Source: an uncultured Dehalococcoidales bacterium
GTDB lineage: Bacteria > Chloroflexota > Dehalococcoidia > GIF9 > UBA5629
Direction of reading: 5' to 3'
DNA length: 64,000 nucleotides
NCBI GenBank assembly: GCA_964545945.1
Contig: CAZJID010000002.1
Location: 1,515 to 65,514 of the forward strand
Shown here piece after piece: positions 1-48,308 of the stretch. Position numbers and translations under genes: made by a program. A model generated the notes under the pieces. That model had not been told where the DNA came from. It was given only the letters and a program-made list of their open reading frames with translations, and searched no databases. Position 1 is the first letter of the stretch. Every line of letters begins with the position of its first letter.

Positions 1-225
1 GAGCTGGTGGATGAAATCGTTAAAGTAACCAACGATGATGCCGGTGCCACAGCCAGAAGGTTAGCCAGGGAGGAGGGCATACTCGCTGGTATTTCTTCCG
101 GCGCTGCCGCCTGGGCGGCTTTAGAAGTTGCCAAAAGGCCGGAGAACAAGGGGAAATTGCTTGTGGTCATTTTGCCTGATACTGGCGAGCGTTATATATC
201 TACCTGGCTTTTTCAGGGGTTGTAA
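1..225 (+). CDS. Cysteine synthase family protein (CysK/CysM/MccA-like), C-terminal fragment; the 5' end lies outside the window
   Basis: Frame 1 is open from base 1, so the M at 7 is internal. The tail ...[13 protein letters not shown]...[19 protein letters not shown] matches the C-terminus of PLP-dependent O-acetylserine sulfhydrylases. Confidence 0.8.
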
Positions 226-248
226 TAATTTTATGACGGAGGTGGAAT

Positions 249-1391
249 ATGAGGTTTGAAACGTTGGCCATACACGCGGGGGAAAGGCCGGATAGGGCCT
301 TCGGTGCTGTCTCGACCCCTATATATCAGACATCTACCTTTGCCTTTGAGGACGTAGGTAAGACAAGAGGCTACGATTATTCTCGAACGGCCAATCCGAC
401 CAGAAAAGTTCTTGAGGATACCCTGGCCCAGCTCGAAGGGGGAATGGTGGGATTTGCTTTCGCTACCGGGATGGCGGCCGAGACAACGATAGTGCACATT
501 TTGAAGGCCGGTGACCATTTAATATCAGCCGACGACGTCTACGGAGGGACTTACAGGCTTTTTCGAGACGTAATGCCCGCGCTCGGCTTAGAAATCACCT
601 TTCTGAGAATGAACAGCAAACAGTCCCTCGAACAAGCCATAAAGCCAAATACCAGAATGATATGGATGGAGACACCATCGAATCCGTTGCTTAATATAAC
701 CGACATTGAGATGGTGGTGGATATAGCCAGAAAGCATAAAGTATTGACGGTAATAGATAACACCTTTGCCACGCCGTATTTTCTTCAACCTATCAAATTT
801 GGGGTTGACTTGGTTGTCCATTCCACTACCAAATACCTTAACGGGCATTGTGATGTCGTCGGCGGAGCCGTGGTCACTACTACGTCGGAATTATCCGATA
901 GAGTTCAATTTCTTCTAAATGCTATGGGTACCTGCGCCTCGCCTTTTGACTGCTGGCTGGTGCTGCGCGGAATTCAAACGTTGCCGCTACGGATGATGAA
1001 ACACGAGGAAAATGCCACGGCTGTAGCTGAATATCTTCAGAAACACAAGGTGGTCAGAAAAGTATATTTCCCCGGCATTAAAACTCATCCGGGCCATGAA
1101 ATCGCCAGAAGGCAGATGAAGGGCTTCGGCGGGATGGTTTCTTTTGAGTTACACGGCGGAAAGGAATCAGCTAATAAATTTCTTAAAAGATTGAATGTTT
1201 TTGAGGTAGCCGAATCACTGGGCGGTGCCGCTTCGCTGGCGGAGCATCCATCAACGATGAGCCATGCCTCTATGCCTGCCGATTATAGAAAGAAAATAGG
1301 CATTGGCGATGACCTGTTACGGTTATCGGTTGGACTGGAAAACATCGACGACTTGTTTGAGGATTTGGAACAGGCGCTCAACATCAAATAA
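249..1391 (+). CDS. Cys/Met-metabolism PLP-dependent enzyme (cystathionine gamma-synthase / gamma-lyase family, MetB/MccB-like)
   Basis: 380 aa. N-terminal TLAIHAG motif, PLP-lysine context VHSTTKYLNGH, and family-typical length. RBS GGAGG lies 6 nt upstream. It starts 23 nt after the cysK-like gene. Confidence 0.85.
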   Translation: MRFETLAIHAGERPDRAFGAVSTPIYQTSTFAFEDVGKTRGYDYSRTANPTRKVLEDTLAQLEGGMVGFAFATGMAAETTIVHILKAGDHLISADDVYGGTYRLFRDVMPALGLEITFLRMNSKQSLEQAIKPNTRMIWMETPSNPLLNITDIEMVVDIARKHKVLTVIDNTFATPYFLQPIKFGVDLVVHSTTKYLNGHCDVVGGAVVTTTSELSDRVQFLLNAMGTCASPFDCWLVLRGIQTLPLRMMKHEENATAVAEYLQKHKVVRKVYFPGIKTHPGHEIARRQMKGFGGMVSFELHGGKESANKFLKRLNVFEVAESLGGAASLAEHPSTMSHASMPADYRKKIGIGDDLLRLSVGLENIDDLFEDLEQALNIK

Positions 1392-1500
1392 AGGCTTAAT
1401 CCCCGAGATTCACCCGATTTTCACTTTCAATTCATAATATATTCACAGTCGACTGCTAACATTCTGGCGTTATGGGAACACAGACCAGGAAGGAGAGAAG

Positions 1501-2691
1501 ATGAAGCTATATCAGGTGGTCGTGAAAGACGTGATTAGAAGGAAGCGACGGGTCTTGTACGCCACTCTCGGTGTGGTTATAGGAACGGCGACGGTGGTCG
1601 GCATACTTACGGTTGCTCGCGCTGGCCAGGAGAGAATCTATAATCAGCTTGAGAAATACGGGCCAAATCTGGCAGTAGTACCGGCGATAAACAATCTCGA
1701 TATGAAGTTGGGCGACGTAAGTCTTGGCATGGTAACCGTTGGCGACAACTATGTTTCAGAAGATAAATTGCCGGAGATCAGGCAGATAGCCGATGGTGAA
1801 ATACGGAAGAAATTTAATATAGAAGACCAGGGAAACATTGCTACCATTGCTCCAGCTTTATATGTCAATACGAAAGTTGGAAACACATCGGTGATGGTGG
1901 TTGGCATAGACCCACAGGAGGAGATGAAAATAAAGACATGGTGGAGAGTTAATCAGGGGAAGTACCTGGAACGAAAAGACCAGGCCATAGTGGGTGCGAT
2001 CGCCGCAGAAATTTTGAATCTGAAAGTGGGAGACGTGGTCCCGCTTGATGGCACGAGTGTAACGGTCACCGGTATATTAGAAGAGACCGGTTCGAATGAC
2101 GACTATCAAATATTTGTTCCTATAGAAACCTTACAAAAAGCTGCTGGTAGGGAGGGGCTTGTGTCATCGATAGACATTCGAGCCCTGTGCAATGCCTGTC
2201 CGGTAGAAACCATAGCCGACAGCATTAATAAAGACATCCCCGGAGTCCGTGCGGTTGCCGTAAAACAGATTGCGGCTTCTGAAATGGGCATGATGGATAA
2301 GATGAATAAGTTCATGCTGACTCTGGCGGGAATCACTCTTGCTCTCGGCCTCTTTGGAGTGGTCAATACCATGATGACTTCGGTGAACGAGAGAATCAAA
2401 GATATCGGGATAATGAGGGCTGTAGGTGCGTCAAGAAGTCAAATAGTAAAAGCGTTTATTTATGAGGCCATCATAATCGGAATTATCGGAGGTATTTTAG
2501 GATACATGCTAGGCACGGTTCTAGCTTATTTGGTAGGGCCTCTGATATTTGAGGGTACGGCCGTTGCTCTTGTTCCCCAGTATTTTGCTCTGGCTCTGGT
2601 GCTGGCAGTCGCAGTAGCCGTGATTGCAACTGTATATCCGGCCTATCGAGCGACACAAATCAAAGTCGCAGATTCATTCAGGTCATTGTAA
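1501..2691 (+). CDS. ABC transporter permease, FtsX/MacB type (one N-terminal TM, ~230-aa extracytoplasmic domain, three C-terminal TMs)
   Basis: 396 aa. The topology is readable from hydrophobic segments. The C-terminal region ...ERIKDIGIMRAVGASRSQI... is typical of the FtsX-like permease family. RBS GGAAGGAGAG. Confidence 0.85.
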   Translation: MKLYQVVVKDVIRRKRRVLYATLGVVIGTATVVGILTVARAGQERIYNQLEKYGPNLAVVPAINNLDMKLGDVSLGMVTVGDNYVSEDKLPEIRQIADGEIRKKFNIEDQGNIATIAPALYVNTKVGNTSVMVVGIDPQEEMKIKTWWRVNQGKYLERKDQAIVGAIAAEILNLKVGDVVPLDGTSVTVTGILEETGSNDDYQIFVPIETLQKAAGREGLVSSIDIRALCNACPVETIADSINKDIPGVRAVAVKQIAASEMGMMDKMNKFMLTLAGITLALGLFGVVNTMMTSVNERIKDIGIMRAVGASRSQIVKAFIYEAIIIGIIGGILGYMLGTVLAYLVGPLIFEGTAVALVPQYFALALVLAVAVAVIATVYPAYRATQIKVADSFRSL

Positions 2692-2701
2692 AGGGGGTGA
2701 T

Positions 2702-3394
2702 ATGTTACAGCTAAAAGAAATATCAAAGGTTTATGGTGAGGGAGCGGGGCGAGTAGTTGCGCTGGATAAAATCTCATTCAGTGCAGACGAGGGGCATTTT
2801 GTAGCGGTGATGGGGCCTTCGGGAAGTGGCAAGAGTACATTTTTAAATATTATAGGCGGGTTGGACCGGCCTTCCAGTGGAGAAGTTCTTCTGGAGGGAG
2901 AGCGCATTGACAATCTGGGTGAAAACGATTTAGTCGATGTCAGGCGTGGGAAAATTGCCTATGTCTTTCAGCAGTACCATCTGCTGCCGTCACTTACCGC
3001 GCTCGAAAATGTGCTGCTGCCTCTGGTGTTTTGCGGTGCCAGTAGGGAGGAAAATAAGGCTTTAGAAATACTGGAGAAAGTCGGTCTGGGTAATAGAACA
3101 GGACATAAGCCGAGCCAGCTTAGCGGTGGTGAGCAACAGAGGGTAGCCATCGCCAGAGCTCTTGTTAGCAAGCCGTCGCTTATCCTGGCCGATGAACCAA
3201 CGGGCAACATGGACCGGAAAACCGGTGGTGAGATTATGCGATTGTTTGACCAACTCCATAACGAAGGCCATGGCATTATTATGGTTACTCACGACCCCGA
3301 GATAGCGGACTTCGCTAACTCCACGGTGTTTCTGCAAGATGGGAAGATCGTCAATGAAAGGCAAACCAAAATAAGGAGGCCACATAAAAGATGA
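2702..3394 (+). CDS. ABC transporter ATP-binding protein (MacB/LolD-like)
   Basis: Walker A GPSGSGKST, signature LSGGEQQR, Walker B LILADEPT. I moved the start to ATG 2702 (RBS AAGGGGGTGA at 2691-2700). The track start at 2624 would overlap the permease by 68 nt. Confidence 0.9.
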   Translation: MLQLKEISKVYGEGAGRVVALDKISFSADEGHFVAVMGPSGSGKSTFLNIIGGLDRPSSGEVLLEGERIDNLGENDLVDVRRGKIAYVFQQYHLLPSLTALENVLLPLVFCGASREENKALEILEKVGLGNRTGHKPSQLSGGEQQRVAIARALVSKPSLILADEPTGNMDRKTGGEIMRLFDQLHNEGHGIIMVTHDPEIADFANSTVFLQDGKIVNERQTKIRRPHKR

Positions 3395-3972
3395 GAAATA
3401 AGATCAGTCAGATTGTGCTTGTTCCTGTAGCCACTCTGGCCATTGCCGGGATCACGGTGTCTTGCAGTAGCTTGAATTACCTTGCGCCCGTGCCGGATAT
3501 TGAAGCAGGGAAGACAAAAACGTTTTTAGTGTCTGGACTATCTATAGATCCGGTAGAGGTTTATGCCCGGGACGAAGTAGTAATTACCGCCCGCGTCACA
3601 AATGTTACCACCATCGATGATACCTATGACGCCGAATTAAAAATAAACAATGATATAGAGGCTTCAGATAAAATACTGGTACCAGCGGGAAAGACTCAAA
3701 CTTTAACGTTTGCAATATTTAAAGACAAACCTGGAACTTATAAAGTAGCTCTGGGGCCGCTCGAGGGGCAGTTTGCAGTGGCAGAATCGACCGTGGCTGG
3801 GCCTGATAATCAGCTGCCTGCCGTACCTGCGCAGGCCGGCACCAGTTGCTGTGGAATTGGAGCGCAGGTATCGTCTGTTTCCCAAACCGGGGCTAGCTGC
3901 TGCGAGACAGGTGTTCAGAACAATCCAGCGACCCAGCCAAACCGTACCTACGGCTGCAGCTGTGGCAGATAG
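3391..3972 (+). CDS. Lipoprotein with a CARDB-like beta-sandwich domain and a 6-Cys C-terminal tail
   Basis: Signal peptide with Cys (...AGITVSCSS). The central segment resembles CARDB domains. The tail reads GTSCCGIGAQ...GASCCETG...YGCSCGR. The start ATG overlaps the ATPase stop (ATGA), which implies translational coupling. Confidence 0.7.
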   Translation: MRNKISQIVLVPVATLAIAGITVSCSSLNYLAPVPDIEAGKTKTFLVSGLSIDPVEVYARDEVVITARVTNVTTIDDTYDAELKINNDIEASDKILVPAGKTQTLTFAIFKDKPGTYKVALGPLEGQFAVAESTVAGPDNQLPAVPAQAGTSCCGIGAQVSSVSQTGASCCETGVQNNPATQPNRTYGCSCGR

Positions 3973-4085
3973 AAAATTGTTAATAAGGAGTTTGAAAAAA
4001 TGCGTATTTGAAACAGCTCGCGCGGTAGTTAGTAAGACTCAAATACTTGATATTGAATTGTAAATTATGAGGAGGTTAATAGATT

Positions 4086-4667
4086 ATGTTAAAGAAAATA
4101 GGAATAGGTTTCGCAGCTTTAATTCTGGCATTGATAGGTGTGTCATGTGCAAGTTCGACAGTAGTGCCTCAGACCACGGGAGCACAGCCGTCAGCATCTG
4201 CTCCTGCGCCGGCAGTGCCAGCATCGCCGGCAACAGAGGCAATCCAGGCGACGACTGAAAAGCCATCGGGCCCGATAAAAGCGAAGCTTATCGAAGCACA
4301 GATTGACGGTGATGCGGTCTCGATTCCCGTAAGCGATGTCGAGAGTGATTGGAACACGCAGTTTGCGATAGATTCGCCATCCGGTAAAATGAACTTTATG
4401 GCATACCTGTTAAAAAACAAGATTTACGTCAGGGCAGATGTCTGCCCCCCATGCCGGTCCATAGGCTATTCTCTGGACGGCAATACTCTGGTGTGCGACA
4501 GATGTGCCACTACTTTCAAAGCTGATACAGGCGATGGAGTCGCCGGAGCCTGCGTTGATTACCCCAAAGCATTAGTGCCGTACCAGATATCAAATGGTAA
4601 CATAGTAATGCAGCAGGCAGACCTTGTCACCGCCTACGAAAGCACTTTAAACCCCGGCTGGCCTTAG
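4086..4667 (+). CDS. Lipoprotein with a DUF2318-like Cys-rich (zinc-ribbon-like) domain
   Basis: Signal peptide with Cys (LALIGVSCAS) and a Pro/Ala-rich linker. The core YVRADVCPPCRSIGYSLDGNTLVCDRCATTF...GACVDYP resembles, from memory, the DUF2318 'Fe-S-containing protein' family. RBS GAGGAGG. Confidence 0.65.
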   Translation: MLKKIGIGFAALILALIGVSCASSTVVPQTTGAQPSASAPAPAVPASPATEAIQATTEKPSGPIKAKLIEAQIDGDAVSIPVSDVESDWNTQFAIDSPSGKMNFMAYLLKNKIYVRADVCPPCRSIGYSLDGNTLVCDRCATTFKADTGDGVAGACVDYPKALVPYQISNGNIVMQQADLVTAYESTLNPGWP

Positions 4668-4795
4668 AATCGTGAAGATGTGATTTTTCCCTTTCAAAAT
4701 TTAGGGCCGCTGCTTGCGTGTTTGGCAAATAGCAGGTATCTTATAACTATACGAACCGAACATTGAGGTAACTCCGACACAAAGAGAGGTGTAGT

Positions 4796-6028
4796 TTGGC
4801 GTATGCCACCGGTTTACGCTGCCGGAAATGCGGCCAGGAATACCCCTTACAACCGATAAGGGTCTGCGACTTTTGCCTTAGCCCGGTCGAGGTTATCTAC
4901 GACTATAAGGCCATGGCCCGTGGGCTGACCCGCCGGAAAATATCGGAAGGCCCGATTAGTATGTGGCGTTATCGCGACCTTTTACCGGTTGAAGGGGAGG
5001 ATATAATAGACATCGGCACCGGCTTCACTCCTCTGGTGAAAGCTGATAACCTGGGACGTAAGCTGGGGTTGGATAAGCTCTACATAAAGAATGACTGTCT
5101 GAATCCTAGCTACTCCTTCAAGGACAGGGCTGTTTCTGTTGCCGTAACTAGAGCCCGTGAGTTCGGTTTTGATACGGTAGCCTGTGCTTCCACCGGTAAT
5201 CTGGCTGCCAGTGTGGCCGCCCATGCGGCCAAGGCTAACATGAAAGCCTATGTTTTCGTCCCGGCCAATGTGGAACCTGGCAAACTGGTCGGCGTGGCCA
5301 TATATAATCCGAACCTGGTAACTGTTGACGGAAGCTATGACGACGTAAACCGCCTCTGTGCCGACGTAGCACAGAGATACAACTGGGGATTTATAAACAT
5401 AAACCTCCGGCCCTACTACGCGGAGGGCAGTAAAACGCTGGGGTTCGAAGTGGCCGAGCAGCTAGGATGGCAGCCGCCCGATTGTGTGGTGGCTCCAGCG
5501 GCTTCAGGCCTGCTTTTTACTCGTATCTGGAAGGGATTGCAAGAACTATCCACGTTAAAGCTCATGGGTCCGGTAAATACTCATATGTATCTTACTCAGG
5601 CTTCAGGCAGTTCGCCGATCGTCCATGCTTTTGAGGTCGGCACTCTTCATGTCCACCCGGTAACGCCGAAAACAATGGTGACCTCGATAGCCATCGGCAA
5701 TCCGGCAGACGGTTATTATGCTTTGATGGTGGCCAGACAGTCCGGTGGTGGGGCTTCCAGCGCTACCGACGGAGAAGCAATAGAAGGAATGAAATTGCTG
5801 GCACAGACTGAAGGTATTTTTGCTGAGGCCGCCGGTGGGGTTGTTATCGCTGGGCTTAAGAAGCTTGCTTCTGCCGGAGTCATAAAAAGGGATCAATTAA
5901 CGGTCGCATTTATCACAGGGGCAGGTCCCAGAACTCAGGAGATTGTAAAGGATATCGTCCATACTTACAACGTCCGACCAGATTTGAAATCATTCAATCA
6001 AGTGCTAGGACCTACAGGTTTGAAATAA
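4796..6028 (+). CDS. thrC: Threonine synthase family PLP enzyme with an N-terminal 4-Cys zinc ribbon
   Basis: 410 aa. PLP-lysine motif SYSFKDR and a GNLAAS segment. N-terminal CRKC...CDFC ribbon. TTG start at 4796 is preceded by AGAGAGGTG. The nearby ATG at 4801 is out of frame. Confidence 0.85.
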   Translation: MAYATGLRCRKCGQEYPLQPIRVCDFCLSPVEVIYDYKAMARGLTRRKISEGPISMWRYRDLLPVEGEDIIDIGTGFTPLVKADNLGRKLGLDKLYIKNDCLNPSYSFKDRAVSVAVTRAREFGFDTVACASTGNLAASVAAHAAKANMKAYVFVPANVEPGKLVGVAIYNPNLVTVDGSYDDVNRLCADVAQRYNWGFININLRPYYAEGSKTLGFEVAEQLGWQPPDCVVAPAASGLLFTRIWKGLQELSTLKLMGPVNTHMYLTQASGSSPIVHAFEVGTLHVHPVTPKTMVTSIAIGNPADGYYALMVARQSGGGASSATDGEAIEGMKLLAQTEGIFAEAAGGVVIAGLKKLASAGVIKRDQLTVAFITGAGPRTQEIVKDIVHTYNVRPDLKSFNQVLGPTGLK

Positions 6029-6076
6029 ACACGCCTATGAGTTAATCTTTATCACAGGTGAAGACAGGAGGACATA

Positions 6077-6319
6077 ATGGCTAAGCGACAGGTAATGTTC
6101 ACCTTTCCGCGTAAGCTAATCAAGGAACCCATAATTTATCAACTGTCTCGTAAATTTGAAATAGTGACTAACATACGTCGTGCGGACGTATCGGAGGATA
6201 GGGGCTGGGTGGTTCTGGAGTTGGAGGGTGGGGACAAGGAAATCGATGCCGGGATTGCCTGGGTCAAAGAGGAAGGGGTTAGAGTGGACCCTGTGGTTGG
6301 AGATATTATCGAAGGCTAG
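6077..6319 (+). CDS. Stand-alone NIL-domain protein (80 aa)
   Basis: The whole protein aligns by eye to the NIL / MetN-C2 domain pattern (...KEPIIYQLSRKFEIVTNIRRADV..GWVVLELEG...AWVKEEGVRVD). It ends ...GDIIEG. RBS AGGAGG. Confidence 0.75.
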   Translation: MAKRQVMFTFPRKLIKEPIIYQLSRKFEIVTNIRRADVSEDRGWVVLELEGGDKEIDAGIAWVKEEGVRVDPVVGDIIEG

Positions 6320-6322
6320 GAC

Positions 6323-7492
6323 ATGAGAAGAATATATCTGGACTACGCCGCGACCACACCGACACATCCTGACGTAATAAAGGCGATGTTGCCGTATTTT
6401 GATGAGTCGTTCGGTAACCCTTCCAGCATTCATTCGTATGGTCAGGAAGCGAGAGATGCCGTCGAACGCGCGCGAAGCAAAGTATCGGCTCTCATCGGGG
6501 CTAAAAACGAGGAGATTGTTTTTACAGGCAGCGGAACGGAGGCGGACAATTTTGCTCTGAAGGGAATAGCATTGTCTCGCCAGGGCAAAGGTAACCATAT
6601 TATCACCAGCTCTATCGAACATCACGCGGTTCTCGGGACGTGCAAATTTCTGGAGGGACAGGGGTTTTCGATTACTTATCTTCCGGTAGACGGATTCGGC
6701 ACGGTCAACCCCGCTGATGTTAAGAAAGCGCTTACCCACAAAACCATCCTGGTTTCCATCATGACCGCCAACAATGAATGCGGTACCATAGAACCCATAG
6801 CTGAAATAGGGGCTATTACCGGTGAGGCGGAGATTTATTTTCATTCCGATGCGGTGCAGGCCGTCGGACATATCCCCATAAATGTGCATGAATTCAAAGT
6901 TGACCTGCTGTCGATGTCGGCGCACAAACTTTACGGGCCTAAAGGCATGGGTGCCCTGTATATTAGAAAAGGCACCAGAATAAGCCAGTTTATGCACGGT
7001 GGAAGTCAGGAGAGAGGCAGGCGAGCCAGCACTGAGAACGTACCGGGCATCGTTGGTCTGGGAAAGGCCGCTGAGATAGCAAAGCAGGAAATGTCGGAAG
7101 AATCCGGCAAGTTGACTGCTCTTCGTGACCGGCTAATCGAAGGTATACTCACGGGTATCGAGTATACGCAGTTGAATGGCGACCCGGTTAAAAGGTTGCC
7201 CAACAATGTAAACGTCAGCATCAACTACGTCGAAGGTGAATCAGTCTTGTTAAACCTGGACCTGGAAGGAATCTGCGCCTCGACTGGCTCAGCATGCACC
7301 TCGGAGGACCTGGAACCGTCCCACGTTCTGGTGGCGATGGGACTACCGCATTTGCAGGCGCATAGCTCGTTGAGGTTCAGTCTGGGGAAATGGACTACCG
7401 AGGACGACATAAATAAGGTGCTGGATGTCCTGCCTGGAATAGTCTCCAAGCTCAGGGCTATGTCGCCCCTTATGAAGGCTGCTGGAAAGTAG
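6323..7492 (+). CDS. nifS: Cysteine desulfurase (class V aminotransferase, NifS/IscS type)
   Basis: 389 aa. Begins IYLDYAATTP, carries PLP-lysine SAHKLYGPKG and active-site loop SSGSACTS-like STGSACTSE. It starts 3 nt after the NIL gene stop. Confidence 0.9.
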   Translation: MRRIYLDYAATTPTHPDVIKAMLPYFDESFGNPSSIHSYGQEARDAVERARSKVSALIGAKNEEIVFTGSGTEADNFALKGIALSRQGKGNHIITSSIEHHAVLGTCKFLEGQGFSITYLPVDGFGTVNPADVKKALTHKTILVSIMTANNECGTIEPIAEIGAITGEAEIYFHSDAVQAVGHIPINVHEFKVDLLSMSAHKLYGPKGMGALYIRKGTRISQFMHGGSQERGRRASTENVPGIVGLGKAAEIAKQEMSEESGKLTALRDRLIEGILTGIEYTQLNGDPVKRLPNNVNVSINYVEGESVLLNLDLEGICASTGSACTSEDLEPSHVLVAMGLPHLQAHSSLRFSLGKWTTEDDINKVLDVLPGIVSKLRAMSPLMKAAGK

Positions 7493-7545
7493 CCGGCCTC
7501 AGTCTTTTTATATCTACTGACCTGTAAAGGAGGAGTGTGAACCCT

Positions 7546-8610
7546 ATGAGTTCGATGCCTGAAATAGGTAAGATTTCGCCTGATGTTTTTGAGAAGTTGA
7601 TATTGCCCCGCCTGGGTGCTAGGAACGACAAAATACTGGTAGGCCCGCAGAATGGCGTGGATGTCGGAATTGTGGAAATAGGTGACAAAGCGGTTTCATT
7701 TACCTGCGACCCGGTATTTATTGTGCCCGAATATGGATGGGAGAGGGCAGCTTGGTTTGCCATTCACATCATCGCCTCGGACTCGGTGACTGGAGGGCTC
7801 AAACCCAGCTTCTTGGCTATCGATCTGAACCTGCCAATGGAGATGACCCGTGAGCAACTGGAAACAGTGTGGAAGATCATGCACAGTGAATGCGTTAAAC
7901 TCGATATTTCAGTTATCACCGGACATACGGGAAGGTACGAGAACTGCCATTATCCAATGGTCGGTGGCGCGACGATGGTCGGCATTGGCAGTAAGGATGA
8001 GTACGTCACTCCCAAACTGGCTCGAGCTGGCGATAAGATAATCATTACCAAGGGCCCCGCCATTGAAGCCACCGGCATTTTTGCCACCATGTTTCCCGCT
8101 CTAATCGAACGTGAATTCGGTAAAGATTTTAATAAAAAAGCTCAGCAAATTTTCTATAAGATGTCGGTTGTCGATGACGCCATGACCGCAGTTGGTATCG
8201 GGGTAAGAGACAACGGTGTCACTGCCATGCACGATGCCACCGAGTGCGGTATATGGGGCGGACTGTACGAGATCGCACAGGCGGCCAACCTGGGGGTTAC
8301 GGTGGAAATGGAGAAGATAGTGGTCGAGGATTGCGTAACTGAAATATGCAAGTATTTTGGTATCGACCCCTATTCGTCCATCAGCGAGGGCACGCTTATC
8401 ATATCCTGCCGCGAGCATAAATCTCAGGCTATATTGGATGCTTTGTACGTGAAAGGTATTAAGGCTTCGGTTGTTGGTGAGTTGACCGAGCCAGGTCGGG
8501 GGATGGTACTGGTAAGAAGCGGGCGGGAAGGTGAGCTTAAACATCCGATAGTCGACCCGTTCTGGAGGGCGTTCTATGATGCTCTCCAGAAATATAGCGG
8601 TAACTCTTAA
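7546..8610 (+). CDS. AIR synthase-related protein (PurM/HypE/SelD/ThiL superfamily ATPase), function unknown
   Basis: About 354 aa. N-terminal ...GVDVGIVEIGDKAVSFTCDP and later ...SVITGHTGRY...MVGGATMVG are typical of PurM-superfamily N and C domains. ATG 7546 has better RBS spacing than the track GTG at 7537, so the start is uncertain by 9 nt. Confidence 0.8.
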   Translation: MSSMPEIGKISPDVFEKLILPRLGARNDKILVGPQNGVDVGIVEIGDKAVSFTCDPVFIVPEYGWERAAWFAIHIIASDSVTGGLKPSFLAIDLNLPMEMTREQLETVWKIMHSECVKLDISVITGHTGRYENCHYPMVGGATMVGIGSKDEYVTPKLARAGDKIIITKGPAIEATGIFATMFPALIEREFGKDFNKKAQQIFYKMSVVDDAMTAVGIGVRDNGVTAMHDATECGIWGGLYEIAQAANLGVTVEMEKIVVEDCVTEICKYFGIDPYSSISEGTLIISCREHKSQAILDALYVKGIKASVVGELTEPGRGMVLVRSGREGELKHPIVDPFWRAFYDALQKYSGNS

Positions 8611-8762
8611 GTTTTTCGACCGTAATTGTAAAGAATACTATAATTAGGACAAAATAAAGTATTTCGTCAATTTATTTTATATGTAGGGAAGATAAGTTTG
8701 TTGGCCAGAGTTATTAAGGTGGACGTTTAAGCGTAGGAGATAGCAAAAAGGTAGTGTGAGTT

Positions 8763-9551
8763 TTGGCTGAGGTAGAGCGTGTTCCCATACTGCGTTTTTC
8801 CGAGGATAATAAAGGGCGCGCCGATGACGTCGTTGTTCGGGAATCTCCGCTGACCATTATCCTGAATAATCAAGAGCTGGTGACCCTGCTTTGCACTCCG
8901 ATTCATCTTGATTACTTGGCAGTCGGTTTCCTGTCTTCTGAAGGGCTGCTTAAGAGCAAGGATGAAATCAACAAAATTACGGTGGATGAAAAGCGAGGCG
9001 TTATCCGCGTTGAGACCAAAGAGGAGACTAAGCAGGCAGTCGAGCTGGTGTTCAAGCGTCTGATTACGTCGGGCTGCGGGAGAGGTGCTTCCTTTTACAG
9101 CGCCGCCGATGCTACGAGACAAACTAAAGTGGAATCCAAAACAAGCATCTCGGCAGCTCAAGTTTTCGATCTGGTAAATGAGTTCCAGCACCGGTCACAG
9201 ATTTTCAGGACGACGGGTGGAGTCCACAGCGCTGCCTTATGCGATACCAGGAAAATTCTGATTTTCAGCGAAGATATAGGCCGCCACAATGCCATCGATA
9301 AGGTGTTCGGAGAATGTGTTTTGCAAAAGGTACCGACTGATGGACGGGTTATTCTAACCAGCGGACGGGTTTCTTCGGAGATATTGTTTAAGACGGCCAG
9401 AAGAAATATTCCTCTGCTTATCTCCAGGTCGGCGCCCACCGACATGGGTGTCAAATTGGCCAATGAATTGGGTGTTACGCTGATAGGTTTTGTCAGGGGT
9501 AAAAGGATGAATGTTTACGCTAACGACTGGAGGATAGTCAGCCATGGATAG
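8763..9551 (+). CDS. fdhD: Formate dehydrogenase accessory sulfurtransferase FdhD
   Basis: 262 aa. Family motifs: GFLSSEGL, SGCG(R)G, TGGVHSAAL, GRHNAIDK, LSGRVSSE. TTG 8763 is the first start after an in-frame stop. Confidence 0.85.
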   Translation: MAEVERVPILRFSEDNKGRADDVVVRESPLTIILNNQELVTLLCTPIHLDYLAVGFLSSEGLLKSKDEINKITVDEKRGVIRVETKEETKQAVELVFKRLITSGCGRGASFYSAADATRQTKVESKTSISAAQVFDLVNEFQHRSQIFRTTGGVHSAALCDTRKILIFSEDIGRHNAIDKVFGECVLQKVPTDGRVILTSGRVSSEILFKTARRNIPLLISRSAPTDMGVKLANELGVTLIGFVRGKRMNVYANDWRIVSHG

Positions 9552-10464
9552 ACAGCCGGAGCTAACCGGAAAAATTATGAAGTTGAAGAAAGAGCGCAAT
9601 GCCGTCATACTTGCCCATAACTATCAACTGGGTGAGATTCAAGATATAGCTGATTTCGTGGGGGATTCGCTCGACCTCAGCCAGAAGGCCGCCAAGACCG
9701 ATGCCGCCGTTATAGTTTTTTGCGGTGTTCATTTCATGGCGGAGACAGCCTCTATTCTTTGCCCAGATAAGACAGTACTACTTCCTGATGAACATGCGGG
9801 CTGCCCCATGGCCAACATGATAACTGCGCCACAGCTGCGTGACCGAAAAAAGGAGTATCCTGGGGCGCCGGTAGTTTGCTATATCAATTCATCGGCTGCG
9901 GTCAAGGCCGAATCGGATATTTGTTGTACCTCAGCCAACGCACTGGGGGTTGTGGAAAGCATAAACGCAGGTGAAATAATTTTTGTCCCCGACCAGTACC
10001 TCGGCCATTACGTCTCCACAAAAACCAGTAAAAAGCTGATCCTGTGGCCGGGCTTCTGTCCCACACACGCCAGGATAATGCCTGAGAATATCATAAAGCT
10101 AAGACATCAGTTTCCCGAGGCCAAGGTCGTAGTTCATCCCGAATGCAGGCCGGATGTCATAGCCTTGGCTGATGAGGTACTGAGCACCAGCGGGATGATA
10201 AAGTTTGCCGGAAGAGAAGACGTTAACGAGGTGATCGTGGGCACCGAAATGGGCATAATTCACCGACTAAATAAGGAGAACCCGGGGAAGAAGTTCATAC
10301 CGGTTTCGGAGCAGGCGATCTGCCCTAACATGAAGCTGATAACATTGGAGAAGGTCCTGTGGTCTCTGGAAGAGATGAGCCCCAAGGTAAAGGTGGCCGA
10401 AAAGGTTCGCGTAAAAGCCAAAGCCGCCGTGGACAGAATGCTGGCAGTAGGCAGGAGCGCATGA
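9544..10464 (+). CDS. nadA: Quinolinate synthase NadA
   Basis: 306 aa. ILAHNYQ, GVHFMAET, the CPM and HPEC cysteines, and the PNMK motif. The start overlaps the fdhD stop by 8 nt. Confidence 0.9.
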   Translation: MDRQPELTGKIMKLKKERNAVILAHNYQLGEIQDIADFVGDSLDLSQKAAKTDAAVIVFCGVHFMAETASILCPDKTVLLPDEHAGCPMANMITAPQLRDRKKEYPGAPVVCYINSSAAVKAESDICCTSANALGVVESINAGEIIFVPDQYLGHYVSTKTSKKLILWPGFCPTHARIMPENIIKLRHQFPEAKVVVHPECRPDVIALADEVLSTSGMIKFAGREDVNEVIVGTEMGIIHRLNKENPGKKFIPVSEQAICPNMKLITLEKVLWSLEEMSPKVKVAEKVRVKAKAAVDRMLAVGRSA

Positions 10465-10790
10465 AAGATACCGGCAAGATCGTCATCTTCGTTACTGCAA
10501 GCTCTGATGCCGAAGCCCATAAAATAGCCGACCTGCTACTGTCGAAGAGAAGGGCTGCCTGTGTAAACATAGTGCCCGCTGTGGAATCATCTTTCTGGTG
10601 GCAGGGGAAGTTAGATTCCGCCACGGAAAGCCTTCTCATCATTAAGACCAAAGCTTCTCTGTTACCTGAAATCGTTAAGCTGGTCAAAGCTGCGCATGGC
10701 TACGAAGTGCCCGAGATAGTTGCCATACCCATCATCGGCGGCAATGAAGATTACCTCAAATGGATAGATGCCGAAGTGACGGGTAGCTAA
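10461..10790 (+). CDS. cutA: Divalent-cation tolerance protein CutA
   Basis: I moved the start to ATG 10461, giving an ATGA overlap with the nadA stop. The sequence ...VIFVTASSDAEAHKIADLLLSKRRAACVNIVPAVESSFWWQGK...YEVPEI is CutA1-like. The 34-aa N-terminal extension in the track is a read-through inside nadA. Confidence 0.85.
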   Translation: MKDTGKIVIFVTASSDAEAHKIADLLLSKRRAACVNIVPAVESSFWWQGKLDSATESLLIIKTKASLLPEIVKLVKAAHGYEVPEIVAIPIIGGNEDYLKWIDAEVTGS

Positions 10791-10817
10791 GGCCCCCGCT
10801 TTAGTTCGTAGTGGTGA

Positions 10818-11822
10818 TTACTGTTTCGGCTGCCTCAGGAGATTCTGGTACAGGCTCCAGCTGACTATATAGGGAATGATATCGTAGCAGACTCTGAAAA
10901 GTATGACTGACAGTATGGCGGTGGTCAGGGGAATGCCCATCAGAGCGTAAATACCGGCCATTGAAGCTTCCTGTACGCCGAAGCCGCCCGGTACCATGGA
11001 GAGGTTGCCTGCCGTGATGCCTATGGTGAAACCTGTAATAAGAATATCGGGTTTTATGGTCTGCCCGAAAGCATAGAAGCAGAGCCACATAACAACCAGC
11101 ATGAAACCCCAGTAACCGACGATCAGTCCTAAAATAGTAAGAATGGCCGAAGGTCTGTTTCGTATAGCCCTCCATCCGAACGACAGGCTGTTATTGAAGG
11201 TGCTAAGAGAGAACATTATATCTTTATGCGCGACGAATTTGGATATCCGATTCAATGCACCTAATATGGGTGACCTTATCTTTCTGACAAAAATACTGAT
11301 GCTGGCCAGGATAATGAAAAAGGCCATAATTCCGGCGGAAAAGAGAGCGCCGGTTGATGCGCCTCCGTGTACAGTGCCGCTGATTACGAGATAGAGAAGG
11401 CCGACTAGTAGCAGAACCAGTAATACCAGCGCATTGAAATACGACTGATATATGGAAGCGGCGATAATCCGGGAAGTTTTTACACCGTAAGGTCGCAATA
11501 AGACAATCCGGATGGAGAGTCCCGCGGCGCCCGATAGAGCCAGTATGTTGTCCAACGCTATAGAGATATATCCTACCTCGAACAATTTCCATCGGCTGAC
11601 ATTGATTTGAAAGAGCCTGTTCGTTGCCACATAGGCCGACCCAAACGAAAAGTACGATATTACGGTAAACATTAGAGCTACGATGACCAGAAACCAGTTT
11701 GCGGCACCCATCACTCGGCGGACCTCTTGCCAGTCAAATGCAATTACAGCTGCACCGATTAGAAAAACGACTACGATGATGATAATTGAAACTTTCCGGC
11801 GGGACTGCATGTCTACATTCAT
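10818..11822 (-). CDS. Integral membrane protein, flippase-like / lysylphosphatidylglycerol-synthase TM-region family (UPF0104-like)
   Basis: 334 aa with about 8 hydrophobic helices. Family assignment is by overall pattern only. That it is coding is clear; the function is not. Confidence 0.6.
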   Translation of the reverse strand: MNVDMQSRRKVSIIIIVVVFLIGAAVIAFDWQEVRRVMGAANWFLVIVALMFTVISYFSFGSAYVATNRLFQINVSRWKLFEVGYISIALDNILALSGAAGLSIRIVLLRPYGVKTSRIIAASIYQSYFNALVLLVLLLVGLLYLVISGTVHGGASTGALFSAGIMAFFIILASISIFVRKIRSPILGALNRISKFVAHKDIMFSLSTFNNSLSFGWRAIRNRPSAILTILGLIVGYWGFMLVVMWLCFYAFGQTIKPDILITGFTIGITAGNLSMVPGGFGVQEASMAGIYALMGIPLTTAILSVILFRVCYDIIPYIVSWSLYQNLLRQPKQ

Positions 11823-11954
11823 ACTATAGCGTAGGGTAATGACAGTTCAAGTAATTTAAGCGGTTAAATGAAGCCTGACCGGGCCTGTTAGCCTGCATTG
11901 ATTTCTAATTGTGGTAAAATAGACTAAAATTTTGTTAGTCTGGTTAATATACAC

Positions 11955-12911
11955 ATGTCGACACCGTTTGTAAATGAACAAAAGAAGTTGCAGTTTAATT
12001 CGATTTCCTGTGGCAAATTGACCTGGGTTTATATAGAGAAGCCAAACCCACAGGACGTGCAATATCTTGCTGAACATTTCAAATTCAATCCTCTGAATCT
12101 GGATGACGTTTTAAGCCGTGTACAACGCCCGAAGATCGACGTATATCCGGACCACCTTTTCATTGTGCTGCATTTTCCGGTTTACAACAAAGAGAACAGA
12201 GTAACGACGCCGAGCGAAGTAGATATATTTATAGGTGAAACCTACATAGTTACTATTCATAAATCCGGTGACCTGAAACCTTTAGTTAAATTTTTTAACG
12301 AGTGCGATGTTGATGAGCGGACGTGTAAAGCGAATATGAGCAGGAGTTCGGGATTTCTCTTATATCATATACTGGACAGGCTGGTTAATTATTGTTTCCC
12401 CATTCTGGACAAAGTCGTCGACAATACGGAGAAGGTGGAGGACCTCATTTTTGCCAGGGCGGTTCCGGAGACAGTACGTGAAATATCGTTGATTCGCCGG
12501 GACCTCATCTCTTTCCGCCGCGTCATTCATCCTCAAGTTGCTGTATTCGAAGCGCTCGAGCGAGTGCAATACCCCTTCTTGAAAGAGGACCAGGATGTTT
12601 ACTTTGGCGATATAGCCGATCATATACGTAAGATTTGGGATAGCCTGGAAGACTGTAAGGAGGTAGTAGATGGTCTGGCTGATACCAGCAACTGGCTGAC
12701 TTCTCACCGGATTCAGGAAATAATGCGTGTGCTTACTATCGTTTTGACGATTATGGCACCGGCGACTCTTCTGGCCAGTATCTATGGCATGAATGTCCAT
12801 TTACCCGGCGGAGGTACGAAGGACTTTGTACCACTGCTAATAATCGTTATCATCATGCTCATGATTACGGGGTTCATGCTCTGGTTCTTTCACCGCAGAC
12901 GTTGGATCTAG
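11955..12911 (+). CDS. corA: Magnesium/cobalt transporter CorA
   Basis: 318 aa. C-terminal YGMNV signature followed by the second TM and a basic tail. Confidence 0.9.
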   Translation: MSTPFVNEQKKLQFNSISCGKLTWVYIEKPNPQDVQYLAEHFKFNPLNLDDVLSRVQRPKIDVYPDHLFIVLHFPVYNKENRVTTPSEVDIFIGETYIVTIHKSGDLKPLVKFFNECDVDERTCKANMSRSSGFLLYHILDRLVNYCFPILDKVVDNTEKVEDLIFARAVPETVREISLIRRDLISFRRVIHPQVAVFEALERVQYPFLKEDQDVYFGDIADHIRKIWDSLEDCKEVVDGLADTSNWLTSHRIQEIMRVLTIVLTIMAPATLLASIYGMNVHLPGGGTKDFVPLLIIVIIMLMITGFMLWFFHRRRWI

Positions 12912-12938
12912 AACCAGCCCAAGGCCAAGGCTTTCAAA

Positions 12939-46833: not shown

Positions 46834-46883
46834 TGTCTCACTCTCCTCACCTGATAAAAATAAGATATAGATAGGAGTTCAGG

Positions 46884-48158: not shown

Positions 48159-48274
48159 ATTTAATTTTCTCCCTGGCTACTACAGGATATCCTCACAACC
48201 CCTACACCCTTGATTTACTTGCCTTTTTATAGCCACCGTACTATAAACTATGCCAATACTTTCAGCTAGATACA

Positions 48275-48308
48275 AAAGTACTAGATCAAGCTGACAAGTT
48301 AGTACTTT
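48275..48308. repeat. 9-bp perfect inverted repeat between PaaK-like paralogs 3 and 2
   Basis: AAAGTACTA (48275-48283), 16 nt, TAGTACTTT (48300-48308). Confidence 0.5.

Follow-up and report, generated by a model that had tools for sequence, protein, structure and literature searches.

We found that the locus starting at position 4796 of the window (the whole 64-kb stretch of DNA analysed) comprises two adjacent units, which we read, with somewhat better than even confidence, as a MetM-type enzyme with a methionine-sensing NIL partner, followed by a NifS-centred set. As judged from its sequence and gene context, the ThrC-like enzyme of the first unit is most likely a MetM-type O-phosphohomoserine homocysteine synthase. 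By analogy with MetN, the small NIL protein encoded next to it is probably its methionine-sensing regulatory subunit, and not MetO. NifS, the PurM-like protein, FdhD and NadA form a separate, variable, NifS-centred sulfur-handling set.

Gene order at the locus

The first-pass annotation described four co-directional genes encoding a ThrC-like enzyme, a NIL protein, a cysteine desulfurase and a PurM-like protein. The open reading frames agree with this and with the positions first read: all four are on the plus strand, separated by gaps of 48, 3 and 44 nt (the last one 53 nt if counted to the ATG at 7546, where homologues of the PurM-like protein start). The genes considered are the following.

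7-225, plus strand: CysK C-terminal fragment, an upstream sulfur amino-acid gene in the same gene string
249-1391, plus strand: CGS/MetB-like Cys/Met PLP enzyme (PF01053, E=2.7e-156)
1501-2691, plus strand: MacB/FtsX permease (MacB_PCD/FtsX, named from relatives' orthologues)
2624-3394, plus strand: ORF for an ABC ATPase (ABC_tran, named from relatives' orthologues)
3391-3972, plus strand: Cys-rich lipoprotein-like ORF, from the ORF list
4086-4667, plus strand: FtrD-like lipoprotein (Pfam FtrD-like match)
4796-6028, plus strand: ThrC-like fold-type II PLP enzyme, 410 aa, TTG start (PF00291, E=7e-69)
6077-6319, plus strand: stand-alone NIL protein, 80 aa (PF09383, 53.5 bits, cutoff 24)
6323-7492, plus strand: NifS-type cysteine desulfurase, 389 aa (TIGR03402, 587 bits, cutoff 530.75)
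7537-8610, plus strand: PurM-superfamily protein, 357 aa, GTG start, AIRS and AIRS_C domains
8763-9551, plus strand: FdhD sulfurtransferase for molybdenum cofactor sulfuration (PF02634, E=3.9e-84; TIGR00129, 218.6 bits, cutoff 140.9)
9544-10464, plus strand: NadA quinolinate synthase, its start overlapping the FdhD stop (PF02445 in relatives' orthologues)
10461-10790, after NadA: CutA (PF03091, CutA1, in relatives' orthologues)

The cysK-like/metB-like pair noticed earlier upstream is indeed present. In NCBIfam, its second member comes closest to models for cystathionine gamma-synthase and gamma-lyase, falling slightly short of every cutoff; this CGS-like neighbour could be another homocysteine route. 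In relatives, the gene string opens with Rrf2-CysK-(CysE)-CGS, and CGS often directly abuts the ThrC-like gene. The block 1501-4667 is an insertion separating the two; it also occurs in relatives L008, L012, L013, L015, L024, L030 and L052, and is missing or differently placed in others. Searching the 64-kb window with tblastn revealed no ThiS, ThiF, JAB, TusA, HcyBio, NifU or MOSC, and Pfam scans of the larger ORFs in the rest of the window found neither a rhodanese nor a second thrC, in keeping with the initial statement that the window has no E1 and no rhodanese. No riboswitch was found upstream in the window.

The ThrC-like/NIL/NifS arrangement far exceeds chance, since the ThrC-like gene lies directly upstream of the NIL gene in 74 of the 80 Dehalococcoidia species-level genomes of our census and NifS comes next after NIL in 30 of 36 window-type loci. 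The latter are termed type-A (n=36) hereafter, and the ThiS-type loci type-B (n=35).

Sequence and family of the ThrC-like enzyme

The ThrC-like enzyme contains an N-terminal Zn ribbon (C9-x2-C12...C24-x2-C27, about 4820-4876) and its PLP lysine is K109 (5120-5122), in the motif SYSFKDR. The ribbon had been regarded as an extra feature, a view that does not stand because the NCBIfam threonine-synthase models PRK08197, PRK05638, PRK08329 and PRK06450 already match from residues 2-7. The protein passes the threonine synthase model TIGR00260 (275.8 bits, cutoff 167) and scores under the cutoff of PRK08197 (285 vs 303 bits). It shares 34-40% identity with solved threonine synthases, about 50% with a Planctomycete enzyme adjoining ThiS-NIL and ThiF, and about 47% with an enzyme of the actinomycete Nonomuraea (locus L153). 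This last locus was chosen by its architecture as a proxy for the characterised S. albulus MetM. It consists of a SAM riboswitch (RF00162, 68.7 bits vs 44.4), the ThrC-like gene and a ThiS-like gene, with no NIL gene in the locus, a layout that matches the one published for metM-metO. This ThrC-homologue route to homocysteine was described only in 2024. According to the GapMind 2026 preprint, MetO belongs to the ThiS/MoaD-type carriers and relies on MoeZ and Mec.

The family has a remodelled active-site signature, reading NPSYSFKDR (canonical ThrC, NPTGSFKDR) in the PLP-lysine segment, STGNL (STGNT), NINLRPYYAEGSKT (NSVNPxR[IL]EGQKT) and PAASG (PVGNAG). It is common to the window, Planctomycete and Nonomuraea enzymes and to at least 90% of 82 family members, and departs from the five solved ThrCs at Thermus T88, S155, N157, R160, Q164 and G187-N188-A189. 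Residues kept in all five are replaced (T88 by L, S155 by N, R160 by Y and N188 by S). Functional roles were reportedly assigned to Thermus ThrC residues by Omi in 2003 and Murakawa in 2011. The earlier idea that this ThrC homologue converts O-phosphohomoserine to homocysteine is thus backed by the sister-lineage context (see below), the 47% identity to the Nonomuraea enzyme and the common signature.

The NIL protein and its neighbours across genomes

All 35 type-B loci have a gene for a 91-aa ThiS-family (ThiS/MoaD-type) protein next to NIL on its downstream side; a ThiS gene takes this place in 1 of 36 type-A loci. The two type-B proteins examined by Pfam and alignment (L065 and L077) end in PAVAGG. 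These two loci and L081 also carry a ThiS-ThiF E1, L065 and L077 additionally a Prok-JAB peptidase, and L077 a CysM-like enzyme. Furthermore, ThiS-NIL fusions (237 proteins, with an internal ...PAIAGG retained) occur in Planctomycetota and other phyla beside the same ThrC-like enzyme, their neighbours being the Zn-ribbon ThrC-like gene plus ThiF, JAB, TusA or a cysteine desulfurase (Planctomycete MAG locus L148 and two further MAG loci, L150 and L151/L152). JAB-NIL fusion proteins were also found, and metagenome loci with a G+C of 0.47 to 0.72 show the order ThrC-like, ThiS, NIL. Since NIL stands beside a genuine ThiS-GG carrier in 35 sister genomes and is fused to one elsewhere, it is an additional component and no substitute, which contradicts the first-pass proposal that it is the MetO-type small partner.

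The NIL protein itself is also unlike a MetO-type carrier. Its 80 residues include no cysteine, its C-terminus (GDIIEG) ends in E-G and not in G-G, and its AF2 model (pLDDT 90.5) shows a beta-alpha-beta-beta-alpha-beta fold with an 8-residue disordered tail, and not a beta-grasp. Among PDB folds, it is most similar to MetN C2 domains (TM 0.79-0.85), one of them in the selenomethionine-soaked structure 3tuz, and its N-I-R motif has the conserved Asn. The C-terminal tail is equally conserved in type-B loci, beside the true carrier, and in NIL proteins outside sulfur contexts, where it can end in Ser, which argues against its being a carrier tail. From the fold and by analogy, we infer that the NIL protein binds methionine; in M. 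acetivorans, the L-ASST ferredoxin subunit has a NIL domain to which a preprint ascribes methionine binding and a regulatory role. A more distant NIL clade is found in unrelated gene contexts, and the ligand of the domain need not be methionine. Given the lack of cysteine, the MetN C2 fold and the co-occurrence with the real carrier, we favour what was initially offered as a fallback, namely that NIL is a Met-sensing regulator.

NifS starts 3 nt past the NIL stop codon; the gap is 0-5 nt in 25 of the type-A loci where NifS comes first after NIL, and NifS occurs in 0 of 35 type-B loci. Its designation as a plausible sulfur source is supported, the Planctomycete locus L148 having a cysteine desulfurase as well, and NifS is possibly the ultimate source. 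No model identified the PurM-like protein as HypE, ThiL or SelD (84, 62 and 47 bits for cutoffs of 251.6, 184 and 125, respectively). HypE was the nearest, and is also the top PDB sequence match (2z1e, E=1.6e-17, profile). The protein has neither a C-terminal Cys nor an N-terminal Cys/Sec-x-x-Lys, and its AF2 model (pLDDT 51.6) is too low for use. Of the 36 type-A loci, 22 have its gene no further than 6.5 kb from NIL, as against none of the 35 type-B loci. Neither the Planctomycete locus nor L151/L152 nor the actinomycete locus carries the gene, and where a type-A locus extends far enough downstream, it is missing in about 40% of cases, with ThrC-like/NIL kept. It immediately follows NIL in L022, L027, L031 and L033, and co-travels with NifS, NifU and MOSC rather than with ThrC-like/NIL. 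The four genes can thus not be taken as one cassette, and the activating role suggested for the PurM-like protein is drawn from adjacency only.

The FdhD-NadA-CutA synteny is kept in type-A loci. In relatives, MOSC precedes FdhD and the NifS set also contains NifU, MOSC, Thi4, MnmA or MoeB/MoaD, its content and order differing from genome to genome. A MoeB-MoaD pair is found in one type-A gene string (L079), which indicates that classical carriers exist in such genomes.

Proposed mechanism and competing explanations

In the first unit, the ThrC-like enzyme would bind O-phosphohomoserine on PLP, eliminate phosphate and add sulfur at C-gamma to form homocysteine, whereas threonine synthase adds water at C-beta. 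In Dehalococcoides, HomK supplies O-phosphohomoserine. In sister lineages, sulfur would come from a ThiS/MoaD-type carrier (MetO) bearing a C-terminal thiocarboxylate, with a ThiF/MoeZ-type E1 charging this carrier and a JAB peptidase responsible for its processing. NIL would be a dedicated third partner on the MetN-C2 fold, most likely sensing methionine and, when this is plentiful, either throttling the enzyme or limiting how readily it reaches the carrier. The second unit, which also takes in CutA, would pass sulfur from cysteine on to Fe-S clusters, molybdenum cofactor and other acceptors. In the lineage of the window, the NifS set sits where sister lineages have carrier genes, so that the ThrC-like enzyme may draw its sulfur from a carrier whose gene lies elsewhere, from free sulfide or from NifS.

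It is conceivable, though unlikely, that the ThrC-like enzyme does serve the organism as its threonine synthase. The NIL sensor would then set the threonine/methionine split of O-phosphohomoserine, and the methionine branch would fall to the adjacent CGS-like enzyme. The model here is plant threonine synthase, which is activated by SAM. The TIGR00260 score, the lack of a further thrC within the window, the CGS-like gene adjoining the ThrC-like one in many type-A loci and the methionine-binding MetN C2 fold of NIL would all fit. Moreover, HomK makes O-phosphohomoserine in Dehalococcoides, for which a DUF39 route to homocysteine has been reported, and HcyBio/DUF39 lies about 10 kb from the locus in L008, whose NIL is 99% identical to the window's, so that such genomes may already have a way to make homocysteine. 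However, the association of the family with ThiS, ThiF, JAB, TusA and sulfite reductase (Planctomycete MAG, L150, L151/L152) and the SAM riboswitch of the actinomycete homologue would make no sense for threonine, residues conserved throughout the five solved ThrCs are systematically replaced, and hom and thrB are absent as neighbours.

We give very little credence to the relay first proposed, in which NIL is the sulfur carrier, the PurM-like protein activates its C-terminal Gly carboxylate and NifS sulfur passes via a NIL thiocarboxylate to the ThrC-like enzyme, NIL and PurM-like standing in for ThiS and ThiF. PurM-superfamily enzymes use ATP to activate oxygens, ThiS and NifS/PurM-like are mutually exclusive after NIL, PurM-like directly follows NIL in four loci, and the NIL tail is conserved, predicted disordered and Gly-ended. 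Against this stand the equal conservation of the tail beside true carriers and in the non-sulfur clade, the E-G end, the absence of a beta-grasp fold and of cysteine, the type-A loci that keep ThrC-like/NIL without PurM-like, and the MoeB-MoaD pair of L079. It is also improbable that NIL, beside a MetM-type enzyme, is no sensor but helps carrier and enzyme meet as a structural adaptor or chaperone, for instance as a cleavable C-terminal cap keeping ThiS-GG inert until JAB processing, or as a docking subunit binding the Zn ribbon of the enzyme. The ThiS-NIL fusions do place NIL after an intact ...AGG, where a removable extension would be, JAB-NIL fusions occur, and a tail that is both conserved and disordered hints at contact with another protein. 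Yet type-A genomes retain NIL without a neighbouring carrier, the fold and the N-I-R Asn indicate a small-molecule ligand, as for MetN, and the actinomycete locus does without NIL.

A methionine-sensing NIL partner would exert in these bacteria the control that actinomycetes achieve with a SAM riboswitch before metM. If the source genome has no second, canonical thrC, the ThrC-like enzyme must make threonine. A small, methionine-sensor-like NIL partner of a ThrC-like enzyme went unnoticed before.

Gene content of the window

The first-pass annotation had described a run of four co-directional genes in this part of the window. Searches with Pfam and NCBIfam models confirmed the positions and domains of all four:

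4796-6028, + strand: ThrC-like enzyme, 410 aa, TTG start
6077-6319, + strand: NIL protein, 80 aa
6323-7492, + strand: NifS, 389 aa
7537-8610, + strand: PurM-like protein, 357 aa, GTG start; homologues start at ATG 7546

The gaps between them are 48, 3 and 44 nt (53 nt for the last one if counted from the ATG of the PurM-like gene). The ThrC-like enzyme has a PALP domain (PF00291, E=7e-69) preceded by an N-terminal Cys4 ribbon, the second ORF encodes a NIL domain and no further domain, NifS scored 587 bits with TIGR03402 (equivalog cutoff, 530.75), and the PurM-like protein contains the AIRS and AIRS_C domains. FdhD, NadA and CutA lie 3' of the PurM-like gene. On the 5' side of the ThrC-like gene come a fragment of CysK, a CGS/MetB-like gene, an ABC/MacB transporter and a pair of lipoprotein-like ORFs. 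This pair follows the ABC transporter and precedes the ThrC-like gene; one (3391-3972) had no Pfam match and has a Cys-rich C-terminus (...SCCGIGAQ...SCCETG...GCSCGR), and the other (4086-4667) is FtrD-like (PF10080).

Pfam scans of the larger ORFs in the rest of the window did not reveal a second thrC, and neither hom nor thrB was found in the 64 kb. With tblastn, no HcyBio, ThiS, ThiF, JAB, TusA, NifU or MOSC was detected anywhere in the 64 kb, and genes for MetO, MoeZ and Mec were likewise missing from it. No Rfam family matched positions 1-12000 at E<=1. Elsewhere in the window, the - strand carries three tandem paralogues of about 425-440 aa with AMP-binding and AMP-binding_C_2 domains (phenylacetate-CoA-ligase-like; 45550-49682) and a CHASE2-adenylate/guanylate cyclase gene that adjoins a FecR-domain gene and a metallo-beta-lactamase-fold gene (53057-56115), a cluster that may be a signalling module.

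The ThrC-like enzyme and the MetM family

The MetM/MetO pathway named in the first-pass annotation proved to be real: this thiocarboxylate pathway was described in Streptomyces albulus (Hasebe et al. 2024, Appl Environ Microbiol 90:e01247-24), and is summarised in two secondary sources, a GapMind 2026 preprint and PMC12172450. According to the preprint, MetO is a sulfur carrier on which the ligase MoeZ and the hydrolase Mec act, while MetM is a threonine-synthase homologue that is often misannotated. PMC12172450 places a SAM riboswitch upstream of S. albulus metM and a metO-like sulfur-carrier gene next to cyanobacterial metM homologues. From these descriptions, MetO is a ThiS/MoaD-type carrier and not a NIL protein.

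The window's enzyme passed the thrC model TIGR00260 (275.8 bits; cutoff, 167.1) and fell below the cutoff of PRK08197 (285.3 bits vs 303). Cysteate synthase was rejected as its identity (68.7 bits vs a cutoff of 324.9). It shares with canonical ThrC the fold, the PLP lysine (K109 in SFKDR, aligned with Thermus K61) and the equivalent of N154. About 50% of its residues, ribbon included, are identical to those of the enzyme from a Planctomycete MAG, compared with 34-40% for solved threonine synthases. A tblastn search of a plasmid collection identified a homologue in Nonomuraea gerenzanensis (46.6% identity over 98% of the query), on an 11.85-Mb record that is in effect a chromosome. At this actinomycete locus (L153), a SAM riboswitch (RF00162, 68.7 bits vs 44.4) is immediately 5' of the ThrC-like ORF and a 91-aa ThiS-like ORF ending in PAVAGG immediately 3' of it, without any NIL; this is the published metM-metO architecture. 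We used L153, picked by this layout, as a proxy for MetM in place of the S. albulus sequence. The window's enzyme is 47% identical to this proxy, which was chosen by architecture, and 28-39% identical to five solved ThrCs (PDB 2zsj, 6cgq, 1uim, 2d1f and 1e5x) in the alignment.

We aligned 82 NIL-linked ThrC-like enzymes with these five solved ThrCs and then added the homologues from Nonomuraea, a Haloarcula plasmid and a Chlorohelix plasmid. Four regions set the family apart from canonical ThrC:

Sequence motifs of the NIL-linked/MetM-like family and of canonical ThrC
Region; NIL-linked/MetM-like family; canonical ThrC
PLP lysine motif; NP[ST]x(not G)SFKDR; NPTGSFKDR
Asn loop; STGNL; STGNT
Phosphate-site region; N[IV]N[LM]RP[YF]YAEGSKT; NSVNPxR[IL]EGQKT
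Next loop; PxA[SG]G; PVGNAGN

The signature is common to the window, Planctomycete and Nonomuraea enzymes. Apart from the Gly lost from the NPTGSFKDR motif, the NIL-linked family differs from canonical ThrC by an insertion of 7-8 residues and by the replacement of Thermus positions T88, S155, N157, R160, Q164 and 187-189 (including N188). T88, S155, R160 and N188, which do not vary among the solved ThrCs and which we take to be residues around the ThrC substrate and phosphate site, correspond to L136, N203, Y208 and S237 in the window and are replaced in at least 90% of the 82 family members. The replaced positions reportedly include phosphate-binding residues that underlie the product-assisted addition of water. 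The Zn ribbon was ruled out as a marker of MetM: the Haloarcula and Chlorohelix plasmid homologues have the ribbon and lack the signature, and the matches of several NCBIfam ThrC models to the protein also start at its first residues.

The signature and the gene context indicate that the window's enzyme is likely to belong to the MetM family. The proposal that it is MetM-type, made in the first-pass annotation, therefore holds, from the signature, the likeness to L153 and the context in sister lineages. Its substrate is very probably O-phosphohomoserine, as for canonical ThrC, and this compound is available in this class of bacteria through HomK. Unlike canonical ThrC, the enzyme is found in a context of sulfur metabolism and not of hom/thrB. 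No second thrC was present in the approximately 2 Mb of loci fetched from other genomes, which is uninformative because every one of these loci was anchored on NIL.

The proposed homocysteine route may be one of several here, with a CGS-like gene adjoining and HcyBio (DUF39) near the NIL gene of L008. In this locus, whose NIL protein is 99% identical to that of the window, HcyBio (PF01837, DUF39/COG1900) lies at 19766-20243, about 10 kb 3' of the NIL gene; the window, which has no HcyBio, departs from L008 after CutA. The DUF39 homocysteine route is therefore probably present in the window's lineage as well.

Neighbours of NIL genes in other genomes

One genome per GTDB species was scanned with a NIL alignment (A3); at least 599 stretches matched, and 596 of them could be confirmed. 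Among these, the 80 best loci (NIL identity, 63-93%) all came from Dehalococcoidia/Chloroflexota, because the close set A3 was used rather than the diverse 35-sequence set A2. The ORFs called there were assigned by BLASTP comparison with reference proteins. A ThrC-like gene was directly 5' of NIL in 74 of these 80 best loci (among at least 596). The six others comprised two contig ends, one ThrC-like fragment, one locus where nothing was detected and two with a CysM-like gene (L029 and L044). As the census was anchored on NIL, it indicates that NIL nearly always has a ThrC-like neighbour and does not show the converse. The gene preceding NIL in L029 (6660-7862) and L044 (6740-7933) encodes a CysK/CysM-like PLP enzyme of about 400 aa with a C-terminal TusA-like domain (...CGYICPISK...), and NIL can thus pair with a cysteine-synthase-type enzyme bearing its own carrier domain.

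Two mutually exclusive patterns were observed 3' of NIL: type A, the window's kind, in 36 loci including the window, and type B in 35. Nine loci showed neither.

Type A and type B loci
Feature; type A; type B
Gene right after NIL; NifS 30, PurM-like 4, NifU 2; 91-aa ThiS-family gene 35
ThrC-like identity to window; 59-89%; 54-62%
NifS nearby; 33/36; 0/35
PurM-like within 6.5 kb; 22/36; 0/35

In type A, NifS keeps close to NIL, with a spacing of 0-5 nt in 25 of 30 cases, and heads a changing set of sulfur-acceptor genes. NifU, MOSC, FdhD and NadA vary in presence, and the inserts include a sulfide-dependent Thi4 thiazole synthase (L060, L041, L044 and L029), a gene recognised by sequence as probable MnmA (L041) and a BzdQ-like activase (L022 and L031); a MoeB-MoaD pair belongs to the gene string of L079. 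A conserved 51-aa ORF and a 144-aa MOSC gene separate PurM-like from FdhD in L004-L007 and L010 (e.g. L010 11156-11816); both are absent from the window, where there are only 152 nt between 8610 and 8763. The block formed by MacB, the ABC gene, the ORF without Pfam match and the FtrD-like ORF recurs in several type-A loci, where it occupies the same position; it may encode a transporter related to metals.

The type-B ThiS genes of L065 and L077, the two examined, end in PAVAGG. A ThiS-ThiF fusion E1 is also encoded at L065, L077 and L081, a Prok-JAB peptidase at L065 and L077, and a CysM-like enzyme at L077. In L065, a Pterin_bind gene (PF00809; 10108-10953) directly follows ThrC-like, NIL, ThiS, E1 and JAB; it may encode a methyltransferase linking homocysteine to methionine synthesis.

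Outside this census, the Planctomycete locus L148 contains the Zn-ribbon ThrC-like enzyme, a ThiS-NIL fusion, ThiF and then a cysteine desulfurase family protein. The order in L150 is ThiS, PALP, ThiF, ThrC-like, sulfite reductase, TusA, ThiS-NIL, PALP, ThiF; in L151 and L152 it is ThrC-like, TusA, ThiS-NIL, JAB; and in metagenome loci with a G+C of 0.47 to 0.72 it is ThrC-like, ThiS, NIL. All 35 type-B loci have an adjacent ThiS/MoaD-type carrier ending in Gly-Gly, and so do L150, L151/L152 and the loci of the Planctomycete and the actinomycete; there is none in the window's 64 kb.

The closest 50%-identity cluster representatives included fusions of NIL with ThiS (P0376, P0288 and P0274) and with Prok-JAB (P0318 and P0385), tandem NIL-NIL, NIL-GNAT and GFO/IDH/MocA-NIL proteins (the latter an oxidoreductase fusion, P0357), and a ThrC-like enzyme whose C-terminus continues into NIL (P0252). 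The ThiS-NIL family comprises 237 proteins, in which an internal ...PAIAGG is followed by a linker and the NIL domain; the Gly-Gly end of the carrier can therefore be exposed only after cleavage. Such C-terminally extended carriers needing JAB processing have a parallel in HcyS-Ala. A metagenome scan with P0325 mainly disclosed a more distant, high-GC NIL clade with other neighbours (HemQ-like, APH, the ammonium transporter Amt and GlnD). Its members (L091-L131, e.g. L092 5990-7231) have a similar protein end, ...EGDVVAG; in L092, NIL forms the end of an ORF of 413 aa, and no Pfam family matched the N-terminal part of this ORF. The occurrence of this clade in unrelated contexts makes NIL a general module, as ACT domains are.

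Roles of the NIL protein, NifS and the PurM-like protein

As we read it, the locus encodes a homocysteine synthase of the MetM type that has a so far unreported NIL partner and that, in the window's lineage, lacks an adjacent carrier. It resembles MetM/MetO in having a PLP enzyme which is homologous to ThrC and goes under the name of threonine synthase in routine annotation, in the active-site signature common to the window enzyme and the SAM-riboswitch-linked actinomycete homologue, and in the sister Dehalococcoidia, the Planctomycetota and an actinomycete, where the same enzyme family adjoins a carrier ending in Gly-Gly together with a ThiF/MoeZ-type E1 and a JAB/Mec-type peptidase. It differs in the absence of MetO, MoeZ and Mec from the 64 kb and of a SAM riboswitch from positions 1-12000, in having NifS and PurM-like after NIL, in the carrier's place, and in its invariant extra partner, NIL, which the GapMind preprint and PMC12172450 do not mention. 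The type-B set of carrier, E1, JAB and fold-type II PLP enzyme also resembles CysO-CysM-MoeZ-Mec of M. tuberculosis and HcyS-HcyD-HcyF-MetY of Wolinella succinogenes, but the acceptor is ThrC-like instead of CysM or MetY, and NIL is not part of these pathways as described.

The NIL protein scored 53.5 bits with PF09383 (cutoff, 24). Its AF2 model (pLDDT 90.5) shows a beta-alpha-beta-beta-alpha-beta arrangement with a ferredoxin/ACT-like fold and an unstructured 8-residue tail. The best PDB matches found by Foldseek with this model were MetN C2 domains, including a selenomethionine-soaked form (TM 0.79-0.85), and no beta-grasp structure was among the matches; N32, the Asn of the N-I-x motif, is aligned between the NIL protein and MetN. 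The C-terminus is ...IIEG and not Gly-Gly. The tail ...GD[IVL][IVM][EQD]G ends 79 of 80 NIL proteins, of type A and type B alike, and a similar end, sometimes with Ser, is found in the clade from unrelated contexts, which makes the terminal Gly a family feature and not the signature of a carrier. Since NIL contains no cysteine, it cannot carry a persulfide either.

The suggestion that NIL is a MetO-like partner of the enzyme was thus not borne out: MetO is a ThiS/MoaD-type carrier, whereas the NIL protein has the MetN C2 fold, without Gly-Gly. A role as ThiS/MoaD/MetO-type carrier is also at odds with the lack of ThiF in the window and with the genuine Gly-Gly ThiS that stands beside NIL in type B or is fused to it. 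NIL is the methionine-binding trans-inhibition domain of MetN. In L-ASST's ferredoxin subunit, it has been described in a preprint as methionine-binding and regulatory. Moreover, the actinomycete locus L153 has a SAM riboswitch and no NIL, whereas the window has NIL and no riboswitch. The roles in MetN and L-ASST, together with this contrast, favour a methionine-gated regulatory partner. By analogy, we lean towards this function for the NIL protein, which would then serve, at the level of protein, as the counterpart of the actinomycete SAM riboswitch. The fallback claim of the first-pass annotation, a methionine-sensing regulator of the ThrC-like enzyme, accordingly stands as the favoured reading, based on the MetN C2 fold and on analogy. 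The main alternative is an adaptor or cap role. Like the NIL domains of MetN and of the L-ASST NIL-ferredoxin (MA1822), with which it shares Pfam family and fold, the protein is tied to a methionine-acquisition system; unlike them, it partners a PLP enzyme and is free-standing (80 aa) or, in other phyla, fused to a ThiS carrier or JAB, and its conserved acidic tail ...GDI[IV]EG is absent from MetN.

A different proposal was that the four genes form one sulfur relay. The window's lineage would have dispensed with the classical carrier/E1 pair and the MetM-type enzyme would receive its sulfur from the neighbouring genes: NifS would provide a persulfide, and the PurM-like protein would use ATP for activating the acceptor, either the C-terminal Gly of NIL or sulfide. 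The distribution of the PurM-like gene does not bear this out. No type-B, Planctomycete, L151/L152 or actinomycete locus has it, and it is also missing from about 40% of the type-A loci with enough downstream sequence. The protein, a two-domain AIRS/AIRS_C protein like HypE, SelD and ThiL, missed all three family cutoffs by a wide margin (HypE 84.2/251.6, ThiL 62/184 and SelD 47/125 bits). Its profile aligns over the full length with HypE 2z1e (E=1.6e-17), but it lacks the PRIC-type cysteine of HypE (C-terminus ...QKYSGNS) and the Cys/Sec-x-x-Lys of SelD (N-terminal loop EIGKISP, without cysteine), and TGDT is replaced by TGHT; its AF2 model had a pLDDT of 51.6. We consider it very improbable that a carrier-less route operates with the PurM-like protein as a functional analogue of a ThiF-type E1.

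NifS is most naturally read as a cysteine desulfurase that serves these small-genome anaerobes in general. Sulfur may plausibly pass from NifS to the homocysteine enzyme as well, because a desulfurase is also found in the Planctomycete locus L148. In L001-L003 (81% NIL identity), NifS and PurM-like appear frameshifted while ThrC-like, NIL and NifU are intact, which hints that NifS and PurM-like work together, independently of the ThrC-like/NIL pair; the frameshifts may reflect either joint decay or an assembly error. In L001 (8247-9458 and 9834-10891), NifS is split into 89 + 277 aa and PurM-like into 164 + 244 aa in different frames; in L001-L003 the NIL start overlaps the ThrC-like stop, and the same contig is found in the NCBI, JGI and ENA assemblies. 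In L013, NifS and PurM-like occur twice in tandem (8248-10532 and 10609-12914). We did not count this in favour of a functional pair, since the copies show 100% identity over 2274 nt and are probably an assembly artefact, or else a very recent duplication. The pairing of NifS with a PurM-family protein recalls the NifS-like lyases that feed SelD. Our best guess, from context, is that the PurM-like protein uses ATP for a step in the trafficking of sulfur or selenium linked to NifS.

The O-phosphohomoserine/thiocarboxylate route has been known only since 2024, in Streptomyces. Judged by the present locus and its relatives, Dehalococcoidia commonly possess the enzyme family, which also occurs in one or more Planctomycete MAG, in other MAG lineages and in an actinomycete; the NIL partner is encoded in at least 596 species genomes. 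The existence of a carrier-less variant bears on the sulfur donor of MetM-type enzymes in sulfidic anaerobes; the PurM-like protein, if it were indeed an analogue of ThiF-type E1, would represent a new sulfur route to such an enzyme. The NCBIfam model names the enzyme threonine synthase. This label distorts the metabolism reconstructed for uncultured Chloroflexota, predicted auxotrophies for methionine and threonine included. The invariant NIL partner, free, carrier-fused or JAB-fused, suggests how the pathway may be feedback-controlled where there is no SAM riboswitch. More likely than the carrier-less relay is a general role for NIL, across several phyla, as a methionine-gated third subunit of MetM-type synthases. 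If true, this role would bring MetNI import, DUF39/L-ASST and MetM under one sensor domain.
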